From positions 1 to 61,715 of the forward strand of contig JAGVFR010000013.1 of NCBI GenBank assembly GCA_020057555.1: a stretch of DNA of 61,715 nucleotides, given 5' to 3'. The DNA comes from a bacterium (lineage in GTDB: Bacteria > Patescibacteriota > Patescibacteriia > UBA9934 > GWF2-40-263). This document shows positions 5,437 through 52,566 of the stretch, in pieces (positions within the stretch are counted from its first letter, which is position 1; the number at the start of each line of letters is the position of its first letter). The position numbers were made by a program, and so were the translations under genes. The notes below the pieces were generated by a model. It was not told where the DNA came from, did not search any database, and saw only the letters and a program-made list of their open reading frames with translations.

Positions 5437-5664
5437 AAAACGACCCGAGTGGGTCGCAGAGTAGATGACAGGAAGCGATAGAATATCTTCTCACTCTTCG
5501 TAATCGAACCTCACGAACACTTTTGTTCTCGAACCATGCCGTTGACAGCTTTTTGCCGCTTGCAACAAAGCGCGTCCAAGACGGTCTCGATCTCTTAAAG
5601 AGAGATCACTGGTTTGAAAAAACCCTTGAGCTATTATCAAGGTAGTCCGGCAGACAGGAAGAAG

Positions 5665-5919
5665 TTAAATGTTCTTGATCGAAGGATCATGCACCAATGA
5701 AGGAACATGTCCGCTGTCGAATGAAACAACGACATTAATAGCGTCTTCCAATTCTGGAACTTTTGCTGAAATTGTCGCCCGACGAAGAGTGTCACTCATG
5801 CATCGCTTGAAAGCGTTGTCAGTTGCGACTGCTCCAGCAAAACATCCTTCAACAGGTGCATCGCCGTTTCCGAGTTCGTTGAACGAACTCGGCCAGTTTT
5901 TCACGTTGATAATGAGCAT
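5665..5919 (-). CDS. hypothetical protein (84 aa), second gene of a GC-rich two-gene operon
   Basis: ATG at 5919 follows AGGAGGTCTC. A terminator CCTTGA-N7-TCAAGG plus T-run lies downstream (plus-strand 5617-5640). The longer 5665..6111 ORF is Ser-rich upstream of this ATG. Confidence 0.45.
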   Translation of the reverse strand: MLIINVKNWPSSFNELGNGDAPVEGCFAGAVATDNAFKRCMSDTLRRATISAKVPELEDAINVVVSFDSGHVPSLVHDPSIKNI

Positions 5920-5948
5920 GAGACCTCCTGTGCTTGACGCTAAATGCG

Positions 5949-6380
5949 TCAGGTTGAACGACGGTGACGAGACAATGCTTGAAACGGAGCTCGCAGTACA
6001 GCGGACAACAGAGTTCCGCAATAGAACCTTGCTGAACGAAGTTGTCGGCGAAACTTCCGATATCTGTCCTCGAAAGCAGTCGGCGGCCACTCGGTTTTTG
6101 GAGCTTTGCATGGAATCTGTGTTCGAACAAATCCATCAACCTTTATCATGTTGTTCGTCTTGATCCTAAGAACAATGTACCAAGTGTTCTCACAGATATT
6201 CACATAGAGTCCATCGTTTCTGAACTGCATTGCTGTGATCGTTGCGTGTGGCCCATGATCCACCACGAATCCGCCGCTACCAGTTGTTCCGATTTCGGTT
6301 TGTTCGCAGGCGATCGAGTTTCCAAACGCCGCTTTCAGACGTTTTTCAAGATCAAGCCTGACTCCTCTCATAGCTTCCAC
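5949..6380 (-). CDS. hypothetical protein (~143 aa), first gene of the GC-rich operon divergent from the serpin
   Basis: SD AAGAGGTG precedes GTG at 6380 (alternative ATG at 6371). Contains IGTTGSGGFVVDHGPH. Arg-rich C-terminal tail. No family recognised. Confidence 0.45.
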   Translation of the reverse strand: MEAMRGVRLDLEKRLKAAFGNSIACEQTEIGTTGSGGFVVDHGPHATITAMQFRNDGLYVNICENTWYIVLRIKTNNMIKVDGFVRTQIPCKAPKTEWPPTAFEDRYRKFRRQLRSARFYCGTLLSAVLRAPFQALSRHRRST

Positions 6381-6486
6381 TTTTTTCACCTCTTTTCTTG
6401 TCTTGGAAACAGACGCTTTTGCAGACTACCCAAAAAAGTATTTTTTGTCTATAGTGTGCATTGACCATTGAGAAAAGGAGGTGCGC

Positions 6487-7386
6487 GTGGAATTAGTTGA
6501 AAAAAGAAGCTTCGCACAGAGTATCTGGCCAATAGATGCCAGTCTGGTTATGGCAGAGCGATTCCTTCTTGGGCCAAATCGAGTTTGGCGATATGTCAAT
6601 CAAACACAAGAAGCCTTTATTCGCGACCACCTCGGTGTCAGTCGCGGAGGATCACTTGATGTTGTGAGATCTATCGCAAGCTATTTAGCGCATGAGATCG
6701 AAGCATGGCTCAAACAACACGGCTTCGAAATCAAAATTGAAACGCTCGAAAGAAACGAGTTCAGTGTCGCGAGTGTTTTGGACGTTCTTTTGAAGTGGCC
6801 TCAAGATTGTGCTGAAAAGTCTGAACTTCACGTTGACGAAACACGCTATACTGGCGTTTGGATCAAACGAGGCGCGAAGTTCCTTTACACTTCAGCTCAA
6901 GACACACCAAAAAAACCGATCGTCAAACTCCCAACGGACAACAAGAGCATCAACGTATTTCTAACAATGCTTGACGAGCCTCCGCTCGGCGAATTCGGTC
7001 TTGTAACTTACGCCAGATACCTCTCTAGCGTAAACAAACAGTGTCTGGATTTGTATGACACTGTTGGTGTGCTCTTTCCAATGATCCAACTTGAGGAACA
7101 TTCGCGACTCGACTGGATCAGAAAAATGTGGACGTTTGACAGTGCTGGATTTCCAGCATTGATTAAACAAGCTGTTCAGATCAACCGCCTGCGCATGAAC
7201 GAGGATGGAGTCCGCGCACAGAGCGCTGTTCAAATTCGAATTCCTACAATCGGAGGATCTTCTCGAAAACCGTACATCTTCAACCATCCGTTTTTGCTGT
7301 GGATAGAACACGACAGCTCTCCAGAACCATTGTTCTCTGCTTGGCTCAACTTTGACTCGTGGAAAAACCCTCATGGCCTGAAGTAA
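6487..7386 (+). CDS. short divergent serpin-family protein
   Basis: Hinge-like NEDGVRAQSAV. YIFNHPFLLWI fits the serpin signature as I remember it. C-terminus PLFSAWLNFDSWKNP matches serpin ...LFMGRVxNP. VLFPMIQLEE resembles the LPKFKLE strand. SD AAGGAGG. Confidence 0.7.
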   Translation: MELVEKRSFAQSIWPIDASLVMAERFLLGPNRVWRYVNQTQEAFIRDHLGVSRGGSLDVVRSIASYLAHEIEAWLKQHGFEIKIETLERNEFSVASVLDVLLKWPQDCAEKSELHVDETRYTGVWIKRGAKFLYTSAQDTPKKPIVKLPTDNKSINVFLTMLDEPPLGEFGLVTYARYLSSVNKQCLDLYDTVGVLFPMIQLEEHSRLDWIRKMWTFDSAGFPALIKQAVQINRLRMNEDGVRAQSAVQIRIPTIGGSSRKPYIFNHPFLLWIEHDSSPEPLFSAWLNFDSWKNPHGLK

Positions 7387-7448
7387 ATTCTATACTTCGG
7401 CCTTTTTTTATTGCTAAAATTTGAGAAATTTGATAGACTTCTTGCATT

Positions 7449-15073: not shown

Positions 15074-15136
15074 TTCGCCATTGACAAATGGCGAATTTTT
15101 TATTAGTCTGGGAACTTTCCAGAACATCTCTGGAAA
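15074..15136 (+). promoter_or_regulatory. terminator-promoter-operator module, copy 1
   Basis: Hairpin TTCGCCATT-GACA-AATGGCGAA plus TTTTTT. The same bases give TTGACA (15081), a 17-nt spacer and TAGTCT. A perfect palindrome TTTCCAGA-ACATC-TCTGGAAA follows at 15116-15136. Confidence 0.6.
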
Positions 15137-15149
15137 AAGCGGAGGAAAA

Positions 15150-16154
15150 ATGAGCAAGTGGACTTTCAACGCAATCCAAGTCAGACAAGATGGCCAAATC
15201 GAAAAGGTTGGACTGTCACCGCATCAATTCACGCGAATCGACAAATATATAGCTGCACTTGAGGCGGCCGCAAGTTCAACCGTTGCCAATCCGATTTTCT
15301 CTCAATACTTTGTCAGAGAGAGCGTTGTGCCAGTACTTGGTGCAATTGTACCGGCTGGCAACATCGAATACGGCCTGTGCCAAGCACTTCATGGCGAAGA
15401 GGCCATTGTGGCCGCGTATCGAAGTAGGTGTGGCAGATCTACTCAAGACGTAGTTATCGGAATCATTGCCGGAAGTCCTGGCAACATCGCGACACCTTGT
15501 GGAAACTGTCGAGATATCTTACTCGATGATCTTGGCACTGATTTCGAAATCGTGTCTGGCGTGGCAGACGGCGGAGAAGCGGTCGTGGCTAACATGAGCC
15601 ACTTTCTGTTTTCAAAGTTCAAGACCTTGAGCACAATCGAAATCCATCCTGACTTGGATAACATGATCAAAGTAACAATTCACCATGGCGATCTTTTGGT
15701 GAACGACGCGTTCTCGCCAAAAAACGTTCACCCTGAACGCAAATATCACGCGCTCATTGCAACCAAAGTTGAGAGGTTCGTCGGCGCGCACGATGTGATG
15801 TGTGATTATCATCCTATCTACGCGCTTCGCGACGCTATTCGCCAAGCAAGACGAAAACACGATCCGTTTGTTCAATCGGTCGTGATTGTAAGCAAAGGCT
15901 CCGGCGAAAAAGCGCCTCATGTCATGTACAAGGATCGTCAGCATCTGCTGTCGCTCAATCTACAAGCAGAATTGCTCGCAAAAGAAGAAAACGATCCACC
16001 AGTCTTTCTCGCAACATACGATGATAAACACAAGGTAACTGGACTGTGGCAAACAAGCGTAAAGCAATGGTTGCCTCTTCCCTTCACTTCTCGCAACTTC
16101 GGCCAGGAACACATTGAGTTACTGACCAACTACTACAAAGGTATAAGGAGATAA
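15150..16154 (+). CDS. two-domain cytidine-deaminase-like protein
   Basis: LHGEEAIVAAY and TPCGNCRDILLD match the CDA zinc motifs (H/C-A-E, PCxxC). The second half is CDA-fold-like but lacks the Glu and Cys ligands (DYHPIYALRDAI). Ends LPLPFTSRNFG, similar to the CDA LLPxxFGP tail. SD GCGGAGG. Confidence 0.6.
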   Translation: MSKWTFNAIQVRQDGQIEKVGLSPHQFTRIDKYIAALEAAASSTVANPIFSQYFVRESVVPVLGAIVPAGNIEYGLCQALHGEEAIVAAYRSRCGRSTQDVVIGIIAGSPGNIATPCGNCRDILLDDLGTDFEIVSGVADGGEAVVANMSHFLFSKFKTLSTIEIHPDLDNMIKVTIHHGDLLVNDAFSPKNVHPERKYHALIATKVERFVGAHDVMCDYHPIYALRDAIRQARRKHDPFVQSVVIVSKGSGEKAPHVMYKDRQHLLSLNLQAELLAKEENDPPVFLATYDDKHKVTGLWQTSVKQWLPLPFTSRNFGQEHIELLTNYYKGIRR

Positions 16155-16171: not shown

Positions 16172-16229
16172 CCGCTATTGACAAATGGCGGTTTTTTTGT
16201 TATTTTTTCTATTCCAGAGTGTTTCTGGA
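16172..16229 (+). promoter_or_regulatory. terminator-promoter-operator module, copy 2
   Basis: Hairpin CCGCTATT-GACA-AATGGCGG plus TTTTTTT. TTGACA (16178), 17-nt spacer, TATTTT. Palindrome TCCAGA-GTGTT-TCTGGA at 16213-16229. Confidence 0.6.
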
Positions 16230-16297
16230 TAAGCCAGTGGCTGGGCCGAAAACATACAGCCAACTTGGTCCTTTGGACCATAGGAAGGAGAAGAGTA

Positions 16298-17041
16298 ATG
16301 CCTCTTCGCACGGGTCGACAGGTTCCGATCGGCAACGGGTCCACTCTCATGATACTCGGTGTTGAGCCAGTGGATCGAGAGCTTTGGGAAAGCCACGAGA
16401 CAGTTCAAGGTCATTGGGTCTACTTCATGGCGCACATTCAGAGTCATGTAGAACCTGCATATGTCAGAGAAGCTATCGTTCACATTCACGCACGAGCGAT
16501 CTGGAAGCTTATGTGCCCGAACAAGCTCGAACAACCACACACAATTCTCATCTCACCTCATGATGAAAGCAACTGGATGAGAGTGATGTTCAGACGACGG
16601 ATCGAAGGTGAACTGTATGATCACAAAAAGTTCCTCCACAACGAAGCGAAAAATCTCAAACACATCTGGCAACTTGTTCGTTACGCTGAATCCGGCTATA
16701 CGAATGAGAACAAGATGTTCAGCACGAGCAAGCTCGGAAGAGAGTGTCCGATTCAGCCATGTCACATAAGAATCGAGGACGGTGTACGACTAGGTCTCGG
16801 TATACCTGAAGCAGAAAAAACCGCGCACCTCATTCTGACATTAGCCAGAGTGATGAGCAGTTGGGGTCCTCGAACAGCCGACTTGTTGGTACTGGGTCTT
16901 AAGATGAAGAGAAGTGAGATATTGAACGGTCTCAACTATCTCATCGAGAACGACTTTCTTGCGAGCGAACCCGATGAAGTTGGATACATCATCCGCGAGA
17001 AATTCGTTGTTCATTGCTGGCGTGCTTTCTTGCACAGCTAA
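16298..17041 (+). CDS. hypothetical protein (247 aa), possible C-terminal winged-helix
   Basis: ATG follows GGAAGGAGAAGAGTA. The C-terminal region MKRSEILNGLNYLIENDFLASEPDEVGYIIREKF looks wHTH-like. No family recognised. Confidence 0.5.
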   Translation: MPLRTGRQVPIGNGSTLMILGVEPVDRELWESHETVQGHWVYFMAHIQSHVEPAYVREAIVHIHARAIWKLMCPNKLEQPHTILISPHDESNWMRVMFRRRIEGELYDHKKFLHNEAKNLKHIWQLVRYAESGYTNENKMFSTSKLGRECPIQPCHIRIEDGVRLGLGIPEAEKTAHLILTLARVMSSWGPRTADLLVLGLKMKRSEILNGLNYLIENDFLASEPDEVGYIIREKFVVHCWRAFLHS

Positions 17042-41213: not shown

Positions 41214-43766
41214 TTATCTCTCTCCAATCGGCGGAGGCTGTGGACCGCGAGGGGCTGCGCCAAGCGCAGTTCTCTCAAGAATATCCGCCTCAACTAAACG
41301 ACGGTCTCGTCCGTATTTCAATCTTGATAACTCTTTGATTCCTTCCGCCAATTCCCGATCGCCAAGCGGCGCTGGTTCAAGTTTCATCGTGAATGGTTTG
41401 ACTTGCGAATTTCCAACAATCATTCGAACATACCAAGTAAACTTGTCTGAATTCATCAAATCATATCCGGCAAAATCAGGGGTGTAAATTTTTTCAAGAG
41501 TATCAACATCTTCAGGACCAATGCGCGCAACATACGTTGTACCAACGTTTCCAAAAACAGCGTCTTTGATTTTTGTATCATTATTTTTTACAAGTTGGCC
41601 GATGTATTGATGCGCGATAATCAAATTCAATCTATACTTGCGAGCTTCTGATAAAATAGTCGCGATCGAATCTGTTATGAAATTTTGAAACTCATCAATA
41701 TATAAGTAAAAATCGTGTCGCTGTTCTTCTGGAATATCCGCGCGTGTTAGAGCCGCCATCTGAAGTTTCGAAACAATAATCATTCCAAGCAGGTCAGCGT
41801 TTACATCACCAGTCTTCCCTTTTGATAAATTAACAAGCAGAATTTTTTTCTTATCCATGACTTCGCGAAAATCAAAACTTGAATGCGTTTGGCCGATTAT
41901 ATTTCGCATCATTTCATTTTCAACAAAACGACCGACTTTTGAAATCAAATATCCTAGCATTTCTGATTTGTGAAAATCACTTGTTTTTGCCATTTCGTTT
42001 TCCCAAAATGAACGAACAACAGGATCTTTCACTTTTGCGACCCAGCGTTTTTGAAAAGCTTCATCTGAAAACATGCGTGGAATTTCAGCAATCGTGCCAG
42101 GCTGTTCAGGATCAGACATGAGAGTCAACATCACATTTCGCATGTTGTGCTCAAACATCGGACCGATCATTTCCGGTGGAAAAAGTTTGTAAAAAATCGA
42201 GATCATTTCTTGAACAGCAAAATCTTTCATTGATTCATCTTTAGCTTCAAGCATATTCAACCCCATCGGACGTTCCAAGTCTGATGGATTGAAATGAACA
42301 ACATCATCCACTCGCTCGCGAGGAATGTTTCCTAAAATCTGTTCAATCAAATCTCCGTGCGGATCAACAACCGCAACTCCGTGTCCAGCTTTAATATCTT
42401 GGATCGCGTATTTCGCGATTGTTTGAGATTTTCCAGAACCGGATTTTCCAATTAAATACATGTGACGAGTTCTGTCGGAATTTTTCATCCACACAGGCGT
42501 CTTGATCCCGCGATAAACGTTAAATCCTAATTCAAAATCTCCATCTGAAGGGCCACTTGGAACACCTGAAGGAACAGATCCGCTTCTCGCTCCCAACCAT
42601 TTGATATTTGGAGTTTCAGTCCATGGCAAAGGCAAATGCCAAAGACTTGCCATTTCTTCCGCGTTCAAAACCATTTTATATTTTTCATCAATCGTTCGAT
42701 AAATAAATTGTTGAATGAGATTCTTTTTTGAACGAGGCACGGCTTTCACAAACGAATTCCCATACTGATAAATGTTAAACTGCGAAAACGCGTTCAACAT
42801 GTTTTGAAGAGTTGATTCTGCGGCTGTTGCAGTTTGAGAAGCAACAACAAGTCTCACACAAACATTCAGTCCAGCTTTACTGGCTTTCTCTTCAAGCCCT
42901 TTTACAACCTCTTCTTCTTGCGGAGACAAACGATAATCTCTGTCTTCTTTTTCTTTGTTATCACCTCCACCTGTAAGTTGTTGAAGTGTGCTCTTGTGCC
43001 CTTTTTTCTTTCCTTTGAGCGCGTCACTCAAACTCATGCCTTGTTGCATGCTAGAAGCAAGAGCAACTCCTCGCGAACGCCAAGATTTATATGCAGAACG
43101 AACAACAAATTGAAAAACGGCTCCTTCTCCTTCTGGAACACTTGTTAAAACATTTGTTAGAGAATTGAGTGGATCCTTGTCGAGTTTGCGATATGTTTTG
43201 ATTGGAAACGCGCTTTCTCGAGCAAAACGAAGATAACTTCCGACAATAACGCTTTGCGCCGAAAAAATGTTGTAGTCTTCGACTTCTTCCAAATACGCAT
43301 CCGGATATGCGGCAGAAATCTGCTGTTCAACATAAGTGGCCATGTGCATTGGAACAGTTACAAAAAATTGAATCAATTTATGTTCAACAACAATTTCAAA
43401 AGCGACTTCGTCTGATCTTCCAAAAAACCATTGCTTCAAGCCTCGCTCTCCTTTCAAGCCACCAATCGCTGAAAAAACAGTTTCAGCGGCCGCGATTGCT
43501 TCTTGCACTTCCTCTTTTTGCGGACCGCGATTGCTTTCTTCTTCTCGACGAAATTTTGGAAGAGTTACGAGTATTGTTCGGCTTTGAAATGTTGCGTGTT
43601 TTGCCGCGTTCGTTTTACGTATAAACCAGCGTAATAAAAAAAGACAACAAAAAAATAAAACAGCTACAACTGGAATCCAAACAAAATCCATGTAAGCAGA
43701 AATATCAAATTTTTCTGCTTGGATTAGTTGAGCTTCTGGCTGCAAAAACATTTGAAGCAATATCAC
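41214..43766 (-). CDS. membrane-anchored TraD/VirD4-like P-loop ATPase (coupling-protein family)
   Basis: N-terminal TM helix. Walker A IGKSGSGKSQ. VVDPHGDL. Walker B FYLYIDEFQNF. IIAHQYIGQL. Confidence 0.7.
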   Translation of the reverse strand: MILLQMFLQPEAQLIQAEKFDISAYMDFVWIPVVAVLFFCCLFLLRWFIRKTNAAKHATFQSRTILVTLPKFRREEESNRGPQKEEVQEAIAAAETVFSAIGGLKGERGLKQWFFGRSDEVAFEIVVEHKLIQFFVTVPMHMATYVEQQISAAYPDAYLEEVEDYNIFSAQSVIVGSYLRFARESAFPIKTYRKLDKDPLNSLTNVLTSVPEGEGAVFQFVVRSAYKSWRSRGVALASSMQQGMSLSDALKGKKKGHKSTLQQLTGGGDNKEKEDRDYRLSPQEEEVVKGLEEKASKAGLNVCVRLVVASQTATAAESTLQNMLNAFSQFNIYQYGNSFVKAVPRSKKNLIQQFIYRTIDEKYKMVLNAEEMASLWHLPLPWTETPNIKWLGARSGSVPSGVPSGPSDGDFELGFNVYRGIKTPVWMKNSDRTRHMYLIGKSGSGKSQTIAKYAIQDIKAGHGVAVVDPHGDLIEQILGNIPRERVDDVVHFNPSDLERPMGLNMLEAKDESMKDFAVQEMISIFYKLFPPEMIGPMFEHNMRNVMLTLMSDPEQPGTIAEIPRMFSDEAFQKRWVAKVKDPVVRSFWENEMAKTSDFHKSEMLGYLISKVGRFVENEMMRNIIGQTHSSFDFREVMDKKKILLVNLSKGKTGDVNADLLGMIIVSKLQMAALTRADIPEEQRHDFYLYIDEFQNFITDSIATILSEARKYRLNLIIAHQYIGQLVKNNDTKIKDAVFGNVGTTYVARIGPEDVDTLEKIYTPDFAGYDLMNSDKFTWYVRMIVGNSQVKPFTMKLEPAPLGDRELAEGIKELSRLKYGRDRRLVEADILERTALGAAPRGPQPPPIGER

Positions 43767-49990: not shown

Positions 49991-50986
49991 ACTATTAAAC
50001 ACTTCCTCTGCAACATTCCACAACCGATCATCTCCATTTATTTTCAACAAATACCACCACTCTGCTCCCCACAAATATGCTTCAGGCAATTTCGATTCTT
50101 CTACAAACTCTAAATTTTTCTTGAACATGTCTTCATCAAAAGATTGGTACCACTGCGAAAGCGAGAGTGATTCGATTGGCTCTGGAAACCATGGTTCAGC
50201 TTGAAGTTCAGTGACTATCACATTATCAACAAATCTCTGGGCCAACTGCGCACGCGTATAATAATACTCCGGTGTGAGCGGAAACATGAAATATCCAAAA
50301 AGATCATTCCATGTTAAGCGATACATTGAAATTCCCAAAATGTCAGCGGCGCGCCCTTCATTTTCCCACGAGGCAAGTTCACCACTCACTGTAATTTGAA
50401 TTGGATGAACTGGATCAAGCGATCGAACTAAATCCACTCGTTGTTGAAATTCCGCGAGTTTAAGTGGAACGCAAATTCCAAAAGGAAAAAAAGGTTCATT
50501 TTCAACTTGCCATCGTTCAAGCGCTGTTGAATTTTTATACCGGTTCACAACTGCCGTAATCATGTTTAGCGCGCGTGATTGTTGCTTTTCTGATTCCAAC
50601 GTTTCCGCCCAATCAGGAATAAAACATTCTGGCCAACGAGGAACTTTTATACCAACAACAAGCGTTAATTTCACATCATGATCTTCTGAATATAAGATAA
50701 TTTCGTCTAGCTCCTGCCAGTCAAACTTGTCCTGTGTTTTTTCAATCTCTGACCAATAAACAGGTAGACGAATGGCCGTCACATCAAGTTCTTCCACAAA
50801 TGCGCCATATGCTTCTTGAACATTCAGACCAAGTTGTTTTGCGTATATTGTTGAAAACGTTATTCCATAACGCGGTGGAGTCAAATTTATTTTTGTTCCA
50901 AGCTGTTGATTCATCAAAAAAAATAAAGCAAGACCTCCAACTAGCAGGATAAATAAAATTAAAAGGGTGTGAAAACGTTGTTTCAT
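49985..50986 (-). CDS. membrane-anchored glycoside hydrolase, (beta/alpha)8 clan GH-A-like
   Basis: N-terminal TM helix; IRLPVYWSEIEKTQDKFDWQELD; WQVENEPF (NEP acid/base). Confidence 0.5.
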   Translation of the reverse strand: MKQRFHTLLILFILLVGGLALFFLMNQQLGTKINLTPPRYGITFSTIYAKQLGLNVQEAYGAFVEELDVTAIRLPVYWSEIEKTQDKFDWQELDEIILYSEDHDVKLTLVVGIKVPRWPECFIPDWAETLESEKQQSRALNMITAVVNRYKNSTALERWQVENEPFFPFGICVPLKLAEFQQRVDLVRSLDPVHPIQITVSGELASWENEGRAADILGISMYRLTWNDLFGYFMFPLTPEYYYTRAQLAQRFVDNVIVTELQAEPWFPEPIESLSLSQWYQSFDEDMFKKNLEFVEESKLPEAYLWGAEWWYLLKINGDDRLWNVAEEVFNSQ

Positions 50987-52566
50987 GAAATCTCTTCACG
51001 CTTTTCTCGCAAAAACGCAAGCCAGCTTTCAATCACGTCAATTGCCGCCTTGAATGGCGCTTCAATAATAAAATCAAAAAAGAAAAGAAAAATGTTTATT
51101 CGCGGTGCTCGCATTGCGATCCAGCGTCCAACTCGAACGATAGGTAAAAACAACATGTCGCCAAGAATTCCGAAAAATCCTCCTGAAGTTTCAATAACAA
51201 GATATTCCTTGCGTGTGTTGCGGATACGAAGTCCAAAGTACGCAACGAGTGACAAGAAAAACAGAAAAAAGAAAATTGACAAACTGTTAAATCCGAATGT
51301 TCGCAATCCCCACGCGATAAGAGTCACAACAGCGACAAAAACCAGAAGATACACAAAATGGAATATGGCCCAAAGCGCTCCGCCTCCCCATACGCGCTTT
51401 CGCAATACGAATGTCGTGTCTTCTCCAAGCCCTAAAAATGCGTGTGCTTCTTCGAGAATCTTTGCGTTGTTTTTCTTTTTTGAAATACGAACAGTAAGTC
51501 CGACAAACGCAAGCAGTAACGGCGGAAACATTATGTTAACTGCTAAAGGTAAATAATCAGTTGAGTGCAAAACAAAAAGTTCGTACGGATATTCAACAAG
51601 AATTGCAAGAATAGACTTTGTGAGAAGAAGAAAAAACGCGGCTCGAATTACAGTGCGAGAAAGTCGCGCGCGAAAAACACTGTATCGTTCTTTCACAGCT
51701 GAAGTGATCGCGGAATCTATCGTGTTTGCGTCTTGTTCTGTAACAGCATCAGAAAAAGCTTGAGGATTGTCTTTTGCAATATCTCCAATAAGATGAAAAA
51801 CAATGGAGTGACGGCGTACAAATCTATAAACCACGTCCGCTGATTTGTGATGTACCTGTTCTTCAATTGAAGCAACAACTTTTTTAAGATTCACAGCAAT
51901 CTCTTGAACAACAGGATCGCTTGATTGCGCTGTGCGCCAAGCAGGATAATACAAAGTCAAAATTCGATAGCGAAGCGTTGCTCTATTCGATTTGAGAACA
52001 CTGCGATGAACAGCAACATACAACTGTAAATCACGATCTTTTTCAGCAACTGCATTGGTTTCCCATTGCACTCGCGCTTTGAGAGCCTGATACGCATAAC
52101 TCGCGAGTGATTCATCAACGCAAGGCGGCGCAACAATGTATTCAATCTCTGTTGAGAGAACATCAAGAAGCCATTGATAACGAAATTGGCCGTCGTGGGT
52201 TTCTTCCTCAAGAGTTCCAAACATTTTTTTGTATTTCTCTAAAACATTCGCGACCTCGCCGATTTTTCCAGTCGGAACTCTTTTATTTGGAAGATATTTT
52301 GCCCAAACAAGCTCTTTCAACAAATGTGAGGATAATTTTTGTGAATCCGTTTCGCCCAAACGTCGTTTCAAAACACGACGAATCGCGTTGCGACGAAGAA
52401 GATGTTCTTCATCATATTCAAGAGTGTTGCGAACTGTTTCGTACGCAGAAGCAGCAACAGAAACTGTGTCAGAAACTTTAATTACATCTTCGGCTTTTGG
52501 TTCTTCCTGCGCCTCCTGATTCATTTGAAGAATTGTTGTAACAAGATGTTGTAGAGATTTTTCCAT
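50983..52566 (-). CDS. hypothetical polytopic membrane protein
   Basis: 527-aa ORF with a soluble N-terminal half, C-terminal TM helices, and a 4-nt overlap with the downstream gene. Confidence 0.6.
   Translation of the reverse strand: MEKSLQHLVTTILQMNQEAQEEPKAEDVIKVSDTVSVAASAYETVRNTLEYDEEHLLRRNAIRRVLKRRLGETDSQKLSSHLLKELVWAKYLPNKRVPTGKIGEVANVLEKYKKMFGTLEEETHDGQFRYQWLLDVLSTEIEYIVAPPCVDESLASYAYQALKARVQWETNAVAEKDRDLQLYVAVHRSVLKSNRATLRYRILTLYYPAWRTAQSSDPVVQEIAVNLKKVVASIEEQVHHKSADVVYRFVRRHSIVFHLIGDIAKDNPQAFSDAVTEQDANTIDSAITSAVKERYSVFRARLSRTVIRAAFFLLLTKSILAILVEYPYELFVLHSTDYLPLAVNIMFPPLLLAFVGLTVRISKKKNNAKILEEAHAFLGLGEDTTFVLRKRVWGGGALWAIFHFVYLLVFVAVVTLIAWGLRTFGFNSLSIFFFLFFLSLVAYFGLRIRNTRKEYLVIETSGGFFGILGDMLFLPIVRVGRWIAMRAPRINIFLFFFDFIIEAPFKAAIDVIESWLAFLREKREEIS

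Follow-up and report, generated by a model that had tools for sequence, protein, structure and literature searches.

A putative mini-serpin of 299 residues encoded in a Patescibacteriota contig and its family in bacterial, archaeal and large phage contigs

The stretch of DNA analysed here, called the window from now on, comprises the 61,715 nucleotides of contig JAGVFR010000013.1 (assembly GCA_020057555.1), assigned to the Patescibacteriota. It is bacterial chromosome, encoding class II ribonucleotide reductase, LigA, LepA, RecJ, GatA, DnaX, Lpd and Lgt, and it further carries a VirD4-like coupling protein, rpoD, dnaG and three tRNAs. Positions 6487-7386 of its forward strand hold a gene whose product, hereafter the mini-serpin, is very probably a serpin homologue with a reduced serpin fold. 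A preliminary description, made from the sequence alone, had presented this gene as a short, divergent and possibly minimal serpin, a view that agrees with the C-terminal homology, the serpin-only structure matches and the conserved short length reported below. The features of the gene are the following:

6475..6481, + strand: Shine-Dalgarno sequence AAGGAGG, read from the sequence, 5 nt upstream of GTG 6487
6487..7386, + strand: mini-serpin coding sequence, 299 codons plus stop, GTG start
7378..7400, + strand: terminator-like hairpin followed by a T-run, a consensus match only, overlapping the mini-serpin stop codon
7421-7450: promoter-like site of the downstream gene, a consensus match only

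In the list of open reading frames (ORFs) the gene appears as 6481..7386 (+), with 301 amino acids (aa). The alternative GTG at 6481 overlaps the AAGGAGG sequence, and the codon equivalent to GTG 6487 is an ATG start in orthologues. Because of both the AAGGAGG spacing and the orthologue starts, position 6487, which was also the start proposed in the preliminary description, was preferred. Residues are numbered from this GTG, residue n beginning at 6487+3(n-1). The hairpin stands between the mini-serpin and the following DEAD-box helicase gene. The mini-serpin protein is identical to entry P0001 of a large protein database. With respect to the 85%-identical orthologue of locus L002, the ratio of nonsynonymous to synonymous substitution rates (dN/dS) was 0.185 for the whole gene, 0.17 for its first 222 codons and 0.22 for its last 77. 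These values evidenced a protein-coding gene under purifying selection over its whole length, and 6487-7386 is therefore a real gene. Direct reading of the N-terminus revealed no hydrophobic stretch resembling a signal peptide and, as a consequence, the mini-serpin should be cytoplasmic.

Comparison of the 301-aa ORF with Pfam gave a match to Serpin (PF00079) with an E-value of 1.5e-5 and a score of 24.8 bits, below the gathering threshold of 27 bits, in which residues 227-285 were aligned with positions 305-363 of the 370 of the model. Among 150 members of the family described below, 110 match PF00079 at E<=0.001 (best 2.1e-10), no second Pfam family is common to these 150, and the phage copy at locus L022 clears the gathering score with 32.9 bits. 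The NCBIfam search of the mini-serpin returned nothing useful; a Pfam match to mTERF (E 0.0056) and an NCBIfam match to L23 (E 0.076) were dismissed as noise. When the mini-serpin was used as a single sequence to search PDB chains, the serpin matches were marginal only. Fifteen relatives of 285-376 aa, called 'hypothetical protein' or unnamed, were found in the large protein database, and their alignment (A1) contains the invariant motifs N-E-x-G-x-R-A-Q-S-A and P-F-L-x-W. The profile built from A1 retrieved 148 distinct PDB sequences at E<1, PAI-1 being the best (6.8e-8), and the 60 matches listed were serpins save two protein A chains. Several of these alignments were colinear and ran from about profile position 68-119 to the C-terminus, as in neuroserpin (profile 68-281 with 145-390) and SerpinB3 (103-282 with 189-387).

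The family was also compared by hhalign with a profile of three reference serpins (alpha-1-antitrypsin, PAI-1 and ovalbumin, each checked as full-length against PDB chains, with about 850-880 bits). The alignment of 160 family sequences gave a probability of 95.4% and an E-value of 2e-8, the reversed-profile control giving 0.7%. At default stringency the confident block paired residues 191-289 with 282-390 of alpha-1-antitrypsin; the single sequence against alpha-1-antitrypsin aligned only over residues 222-287. All the motifs quoted in the preliminary description are present in the translation: VLFPMIQLEE (residues 195-204), MNEDGVRAQSAV (237-248), IRIPTIGGSSRKP (250-262), YIFNHPFLLWI (263-273) and PLFSAWLNFDSWKNP (281-295). 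The fourth of them, from residue 263 on, fits the PROSITE serpin signature PS00284, as do 94 of the 160 family members. These sequence comparisons establish homology to serpins for the final ~100 residues.

The structure of the mini-serpin was predicted with AlphaFold2. With 15 sequences the mean predicted local distance difference test (pLDDT) was 80.7 and the predicted template modelling score (pTM) 0.80; with 150 sequences they rose to 89.8 and 0.87, respectively. Low confidence was confined in both models to approximately residues 245-260, the reactive loop having the lowest pLDDT in each. In Foldseek searches of the PDB, the top 50 matches of both models were all serpins (probability 1.00, E 1e-10 to 1e-7), with a query-normalised template modelling score (TM) of 0.41-0.59, about 0.5 or above for most of them. 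Since a query-normalised TM above 0.5 is unreachable from the last 100 of 299 residues, the likeness in fold must extend further towards the N-terminus. One PDB match, 9hbk, is entitled 'superinfection exclusion protein'; it is vaccinia K2, an ordinary poxvirus serpin, and offered no lead to a new function. The search of BFVD, a library of predicted viral protein structures, yielded 26 matches at E<=0.001; wherever the name was informative the match was a serpin, from poxviruses, giant viruses or other eukaryotic viruses; the name of the top match is unrelated, and for six matches none is recorded. The best query-normalised TM in this library, 0.67, corresponds to A0A481Z725 of Pithovirus LCPAC201, a protein of 657 aa named 'Sine oculis-binding protein' that may carry a similarly reduced serpin domain. 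Matches to a serpin hidden Markov model and to serpin structures, on which the preliminary description had made its proposal depend, were thus both obtained, and the loop is exposed in the models.

The secondary-structure elements of the two models, obtained with DSSP, were assigned by us to those of serpins with the help of low-stringency hhalign. As the sequence gives no serpin match in the N-terminal part, the assignment of the elements there rests on predicted structure and element order. The resulting map (s3A, for instance, being strand 3 of beta-sheet A) is as follows:

6511..6564, + strand: residues 9-26, strand 9-11 (probable s6B) and helix 14-26 (probable helix B), by DSSP of both models
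6601..6717, + strand: residues 39-77, helix 39-52 (probable helix E), strand 60-65 (probable s1A) and helix 68-77 (probable helix F), by DSSP
6763..6798, + strand: residues 93-104, s3A, ending in W104, by DSSP (strand 93-103), conservation and hhalign
6811..6969, + strand: residues 109-161, five strands, probably s4C, s3C, s1B, s2B and s3B, by DSSP order and colinear HMMER extents
Residues 171-181: helix G or H, by element order
7069..7107, + strand: residues 195-198 and 200-207, s2C and s6A (VLFPMIQLEEHSR), inside the confident hhalign block
7174..7230, + strand: residues 230-248, s5A and hinge (strand 230-245), by Pfam and PDB alignments
7231..7272, + strand: residues 249-262 (QIRIPTIGGSSRKP), reactive-centre loop (approximately residues 246-262 in the model), exposed and variable
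7273..7305, + strand: residues 263-273 (YIFNHPFLLWI), s1C (two-residue strand 263-264) and s4B (strand 269-275), with the serpin signature, within the Pfam alignment
7327..7371, + strand: residues 281-295 (PLFSAWLNFDSWKNP), s5B (strand 283-287) and C-terminal tail

Several observations accompany this map. Low-stringency hhalign placed residues 4-24 opposite residues 45-65 of alpha-1-antitrypsin, a match not significant alone. The family motif eIN.FL...GF.I resembles the helix-F motif of serpins, IN.WV...T.G.I. The best local hhalign matches towards the N-terminus fell at colinear places, residues 43-78 with 129-164 of alpha-1-antitrypsin, where expected (E 0.05), and residues 192-210 with 283-301, neither of them being significant. 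W104, conserved in 98% of the family, is aligned with the breach Trp194 of alpha-1-antitrypsin, and it is near s3A that the alignments of the HMMER family profile to eight different serpins begin colinearly (e.g., profile position 103 at residue 189 of SerpinB3). P198 is invariant in the family and P281, F283, W292 and P295 are conserved in the C-terminal tail.

In the predicted models about 20 secondary-structure elements follow the serpin order. Helix A is lacking because only 8 residues precede s6B, and helices C and D are lacking and s2A is vestigial (0-3 residues) because only 12 residues separate helices B and E; the ~95 missing residues account for the difference in size with alpha-1-antitrypsin. 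The models thus depict what appears to be a serpin from which helices A, C and D have gone and in which s2A is vestigial; its sheet A may be four-stranded. The core from s3A to the C-terminus, with sheets B and C, s5A, s6A, the hinge, the exposed loop, s1C, s4B and s5B, is predicted to be retained, and the N-terminus probably preserves s6B, helix B, helix E, s1A and helix F in compressed form. The loss of helices A to D raised in the preliminary description therefore held for A, C and D, whereas helix B was assigned as retained. Comparison of predicted structures recognises the overall serpin fold, with three beta-sheets and the loop on top; the full set of helices A-I and a five-stranded sheet A (s1A, s2A, s3A, s5A and s6A) are not present in the models, and 299 aa is below the 350-450 residues of a typical serpin.

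The hinge of the mini-serpin is E239-D-G-V-R-A-Q-S-A-V248, which corresponds in serpin numbering to P17 E239, P15 G241, P14 V242, P12 A244, P10 S246, P9 A247 and P8 V248. Its conservation and that of the loop were calculated over 122 family members:

P17: Glu 89%
P15: Gly 100%
P14: Ala 88%, Val 11%
P13: Arg, Lys or His
P12: Ala 57%, Val 30%
P11: Gln, Glu or Lys
P10: Ser 90%
P9: Ala 88%
P8: Val, Ala or Thr
P6 to P7': hypervariable, column entropy 2.4-3.7 bits

Column entropy is 0-0.75 bits at P15, P14, P10 and P9. The even positions of the hinge are small or hydrophobic and the odd ones polar, the alternation required for insertion into sheet A with one face buried. The hinge and loop agree with the consensus by which inhibitory serpins are recognised, which asks for Glu at P17, Gly at P15, Thr, Ser, Ala or Val at P14, small residues from P12 to P9, neither Pro nor charge at the inward-facing positions and an exposed loop of about 17 residues between P17 and P1. 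P15 and the PF motif lie 27 residues apart in the mini-serpin, mostly 26-29 in the family and 25 in the three reference serpins. Besides, Q231, in the shutter and 95% conserved, is aligned with His334 of alpha-1-antitrypsin, a position at which PAI-1 likewise has Gln. Counting 14 residues from P15, the scissile bond is predicted to be I255-G256 (7249-7254), with an uncertainty of about 2 residues. The predicted P1 is therefore Ile in the mini-serpin and Met or Leu in close orthologues, and this hydrophobic character suggests a subtilisin-, elastase- or chymotrypsin-like target.

Since the hinge, the breach Trp, the shutter Gln and the length and variability of the loop follow the inhibitory pattern, we lean, by a modest margin over doubt, towards the mini-serpin being a putative cytoplasmic protease inhibitor of the suicide-substrate type. 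Its metastability, its inhibitory activity and its protease target are what we infer from that pattern. In the mechanism proposed, a protease would cut the exposed loop, presumably near I255-G256; the hinge from P14 to P8 (V-R-A-Q-S-A-V) would then insert between s3A and s5A as a new strand, and the protease would be caught as a covalent acyl-enzyme complex.

The mini-serpin was compared with three groups of known serpins. With the classical inhibitory serpins (PF00079, MEROPS I4), such as PAI-1 and alpha-1-antitrypsin, it has in common the C-terminal succession s2C, s6A, s5A, hinge, loop, s1C, s4B and s5B, as well as the signature, Gly at P15, small residues at P14, P12, P10 and P9, the breach Trp and an exposed, variable loop of nearly canonical length. 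It differs from them in its length, 299 aa against some 380-400, in the absence of helices A, C and D and of almost all of s2A, and in N-terminal two-thirds that sequence comparison does not recognise. In addition, the loop of its family is 1-4 residues longer, Arg at P13 and Gln, Glu or Lys at P11 are conserved and there is no signal peptide. The second group consists of the reduced viral serpins. Cowpox CrmA, an intracellular protein of 341 aa without helix D, inhibits caspases and granzyme B, and it is to our knowledge the smallest characterised serpin. CrmA and the short serpin-like proteins of poxviruses and giant viruses are comparable with the mini-serpin family in being intracellular and virus-encoded, and they demonstrate that inhibition can survive the loss of helices; the BFVD matches include viral serpin-like proteins of 301-347 aa. 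In contrast, the mini-serpin family is ~40-50 residues shorter, is also without helices A and C and is prokaryotic or phage-borne, and its sequence was not seen to be closer to the reduced viral serpins than to other serpins.

The third group is that of the prokaryotic serpins. The characterised ones are full-length (about 370-420 aa), score above the Pfam threshold and in many cases are secreted proteins or lipoproteins. Bacterial and archaeal serpins include thermopin, tengpin, miropin, the siropins, chloropin, Pnserpin and aeropin, several of which have a hydrophobic P1 and inhibit elastase-, chymotrypsin- or subtilisin-like proteases (PMC8233489, PMC10090351, PMC5297747). A phylogeny of the serpin superfamily published in 2021 left out every sequence that fell short of the median length by more than 25% (PMC8233489); the length of the mini-serpin family is approximately at that limit and the family may therefore have been excluded. 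In the literature on minimal and on prokaryotic or phage serpins, of which our coverage was not exhaustive, no description of such a family of short serpins was found.

The family was delimited by scanning 1.84 billion cluster representatives, which yielded 2,688 proteins at E<=0.001, 1,404 at E<=1e-10 and 801 at E<=1e-30. It thus comprises at least 801 clusters at 50% identity by the strictest of these limits. Most of the best 150 representatives have 276-320 aa, there is no Pfam model for the family itself and its members, where named at all, are called 'hypothetical protein'. About one-eighth of the members bear an N-terminal extension, and 20 of 164 (about 12%) reach at least 340 aa. This extension, of ~85 aa, is found in L022:5752-6912, P0015, P0023, P0024, P0045, P0046 and others, and the alignment of 14 copies gave the motif ERY..K..MHLGP.RR.L..GDV.EW. 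It has no significant match in the PDB, two examples corresponded to no PHROG family, and Pfam recognised only the Serpin domain in the one full-length extended copy searched (L022).

Species-representative genomes contain 17 copies of the family, the closest being 45% identical, in metagenome-assembled genomes (MAGs) labelled as Patescibacteria, DPANN archaea, Babeliales, Gammaproteobacteria, Acidobacteria, Ktedonobacteria and others. Four copies were detected among the 2.9 million viral contigs of IMG/VR, on contigs of 26-435 kb, with neighbours such as a phage-type RtcB ligase, a clamp loader and PHROG families of unknown function. The contig of a 'Paludibacteraceae' MAG proved to be identical to one of these viral contigs (L014 and L023), so that some taxonomic labels of the members may be binning errors of phage contigs. 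Other copies stand in cellular settings, such as the str operon region (L001), next to archaeal TruD and PTH2 (L028) or with PGK and TIM (L020). The family occurs as a stand-alone gene in bacterial, archaeal and large phage contigs.

In the window, the upstream neighbour of the mini-serpin is a DHH/DHHA2 gene, and the DEAD-box helicase gene begins 62 nt downstream on the same strand. Between the DHH/DHHA2 gene and the mini-serpin lies a single conserved small divergent ORF:

5952..6380, - strand: divergent orphan ORF of 143 aa, with an 87% identical orthologue in L002-L004

This arrangement of DHH/DHHA2 gene, 143-aa ORF, mini-serpin and DEAD-box helicase gene is retained in the three relatives L002-L004. 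The preliminary description had reported two small divergent neighbours without assigned function and nothing else; one of them is the 143-aa ORF, the second (81 aa in relatives) is absent from the window, and it is the two flanking genes that contradict the rest of the statement. The segment 5462-5905 fails to align with the otherwise syntenic L002, whose 81-aa ORF is the one missing here. Neither the 143-aa ORF nor the nearby small ORFs matched Pfam, PHROGs, PADLOC or the PDB, and the former was not found near more distant family members; it may have been acquired together with the mini-serpin. The G+C content of 5437-7386 is 46.5%, a value at the 98th percentile for that length, compared with 41.4% for the window; the contrast is sharper in G+C content at third codon positions (GC3), which is 0.46 in the mini-serpin and in the 143-aa ORF versus 0.30-0.32 in the two flanking genes. 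The GC-rich island described earlier is thus real and modest, and a high GC3 was also seen in some further genes of the window. The two genes together form a small compositional islet, which is compatible with horizontal acquisition.

The inhibitor reading has to be weighed against several results that do not favour it. At the level of sequence, the sub-threshold Pfam match covers only 59 residues, a profile of 41 sequences of residues 5-222 found no serpin among PDB sequences, and hhalign of residues 1-222, 1-91 and 92-222 against the three-serpin profile did not outperform the reversed control. The divergence attributed earlier to the N-terminal third is therefore right in kind and larger in extent, since it is the N-terminal two-thirds that are without detectable serpin similarity. 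At the level of structure, Foldseek TM values are just 0.5-0.6, with a root-mean-square deviation of 7-9 A over gapped alignments, and without helices A, C and D and with s2A largely gone the protein might no longer have the metastability on which inhibition depends; no characterised serpin is known to be of this small size. Arg at P13 and Gln, Glu or Lys at P11 are more conserved than in classical serpins and Val occupies P12 in 30% of the members, which may reflect a different constraint. Finally, the all-against-all comparison of ORFs from 22 loci found in common only the mini-serpin, overlapping shadow ORFs and generic ABC ATPases, and no protease domain appeared in the Pfam-scanned neighbours or in the neighbours of syntenic relatives with precomputed Pfam matches, in agreement with the earlier remark that no protease gene lies nearby.

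Some of these results are what would be expected if the family were a serpin-derived scaffold without inhibitory function, reused for binding or for a chaperone-like or structural role, in which the hinge would serve interaction with a partner. Ovalbumin, PEDF, Hsp47 and the hormone-binding globulins are precedents of non-inhibitory serpins. We regard this as a possible alternative, appreciably less probable than inhibition. The absence of helices A, C and D with the vestigial s2A may remove metastability, the P13 Arg and the polar P11 are unusually conserved with Val at 30% of P12, the top structural matches include PEDF, Hsp47, ovalbumin and corticosteroid-binding globulin, and no protease partner stood in any neighbourhood looked at. 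However, the even positions of the hinge are small or hydrophobic, without Pro or charge at P14, P12 and P10, and ovalbumin has Arg at P14, unlike the mini-serpin family. A loop of nearly canonical length which is hypervariable beside a fixed hinge is, in addition, typical of inhibitors that diversify their specificity, and conservation extends to the breach Trp and the shutter Gln.

A second alternative keeps the inhibitory function and restricts it to the conflict between phages and their hosts. Copies in phages would block defence proteases, and cellular copies would either trap phage maturation proteases or be leftovers of phages. As the general explanation of the family we judge it rather unlikely, and as a specialisation of the inhibitor reading it is plausible, given the phage copies and the islet-like context. 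Poxvirus CrmA, which blocks host caspases, offers a precedent. Members lie on the IMG/VR contigs of 26-435 kb among phage-type neighbours, one supposed MAG copy is actually on a phage contig, the gene stands alone in variable contexts (the neighbourhoods of individual members are heterogeneous), the copy of the window and its orphan companion, with their atypical GC3, form a small islet flanked by housekeeping genes, and the loop sequence is hypervariable. On the other side, neither PADLOC nor PHROGs gave anything significant for the mini-serpin or for three diverse relatives, many copies stand amid ordinary cellular genes, no defence genes were seen adjoining and there are only four matches in 2.9 million viral contigs. 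The boldest form of this idea, to which we likewise grant little likelihood, is that a large, hitherto undescribed clade of ~290-aa mini-serpins, below the size of every characterised serpin known to us, performs loop insertion with a four-stranded sheet A and without helices A, C and D and acts as an intracellular weapon in the protease-based conflicts of huge phages and of bacteria and archaea that are known mainly through metagenomes. Such proteins would block the protease effectors of defence systems or trap phage maturation proteases, as a prokaryotic counterpart of poxvirus CrmA.

It is very improbable that the serpin likeness is due to chance or convergence in a short C-terminal beta-hairpin motif of an unrelated fold. 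The lack of significant similarity to serpins in the N-terminal two-thirds is what such a resemblance would leave, but it was rejected as an explanation because Pfam, the PDB profile search and hhalign with its reversed control point to serpins alone, the two models retrieve only serpins with TM values beyond the reach of the C-terminus alone, and the succession of elements is that of serpins. Hardly credible either is a decayed remnant or 5'-truncated fragment of an ordinary bacterial serpin of ~400 aa, as might be imagined from the ~95 residues lacking with respect to alpha-1-antitrypsin and from the restriction of the Pfam match to the C-terminus, since the ~290-aa length is kept across hundreds of clusters, dN/dS is equally low over the first 222 codons, a strong ribosome-binding site of its own precedes the conserved start of the gene, and the losses affect the interior (helices C and D) and not just the end (helix A) of a chain confidently folded in the better model.

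Serpins are the textbook case of a metastable fold that works through a large conformational change, and work on folding, on polymerisation disease and on inhibitor engineering has long asked which parts of this ~400-residue fold can be dispensed with. If the ~290-residue family were active, it would define a much smaller working serpin core and a compact scaffold, and it could show the smallest serpin fold that still works. The diversity of prokaryotic and phage serpins may also be underestimated, because this is a large family without its own Pfam model, with members named as hypothetical and with a length near the cut-off applied in the phylogeny. Its copies in huge phages raise the possibility of protease inhibition as a tactic between phages and hosts.

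Some other features of the window deserve mention. Three ORFs gave no Pfam match, those at 50983-52566 (-, 526 aa), 15081-16154 (+, 357 aa) and 16178-17041 (+, 287 aa). At 123-1244, a large serine recombinase of which the C-terminal part is present (Pfam Recombinase and Zn_ribbon_recom) ends against a tRNA-Asn gene (1170-1244, -), an arrangement suggestive of the boundary of an integrated element situated to the left of the window. Finally, an 850-aa type IV secretion coupling protein of the VirD4/TraG type is encoded at 41214-43766 (-) amid housekeeping genes and hints at a conjugative element or a host-associated lifestyle.

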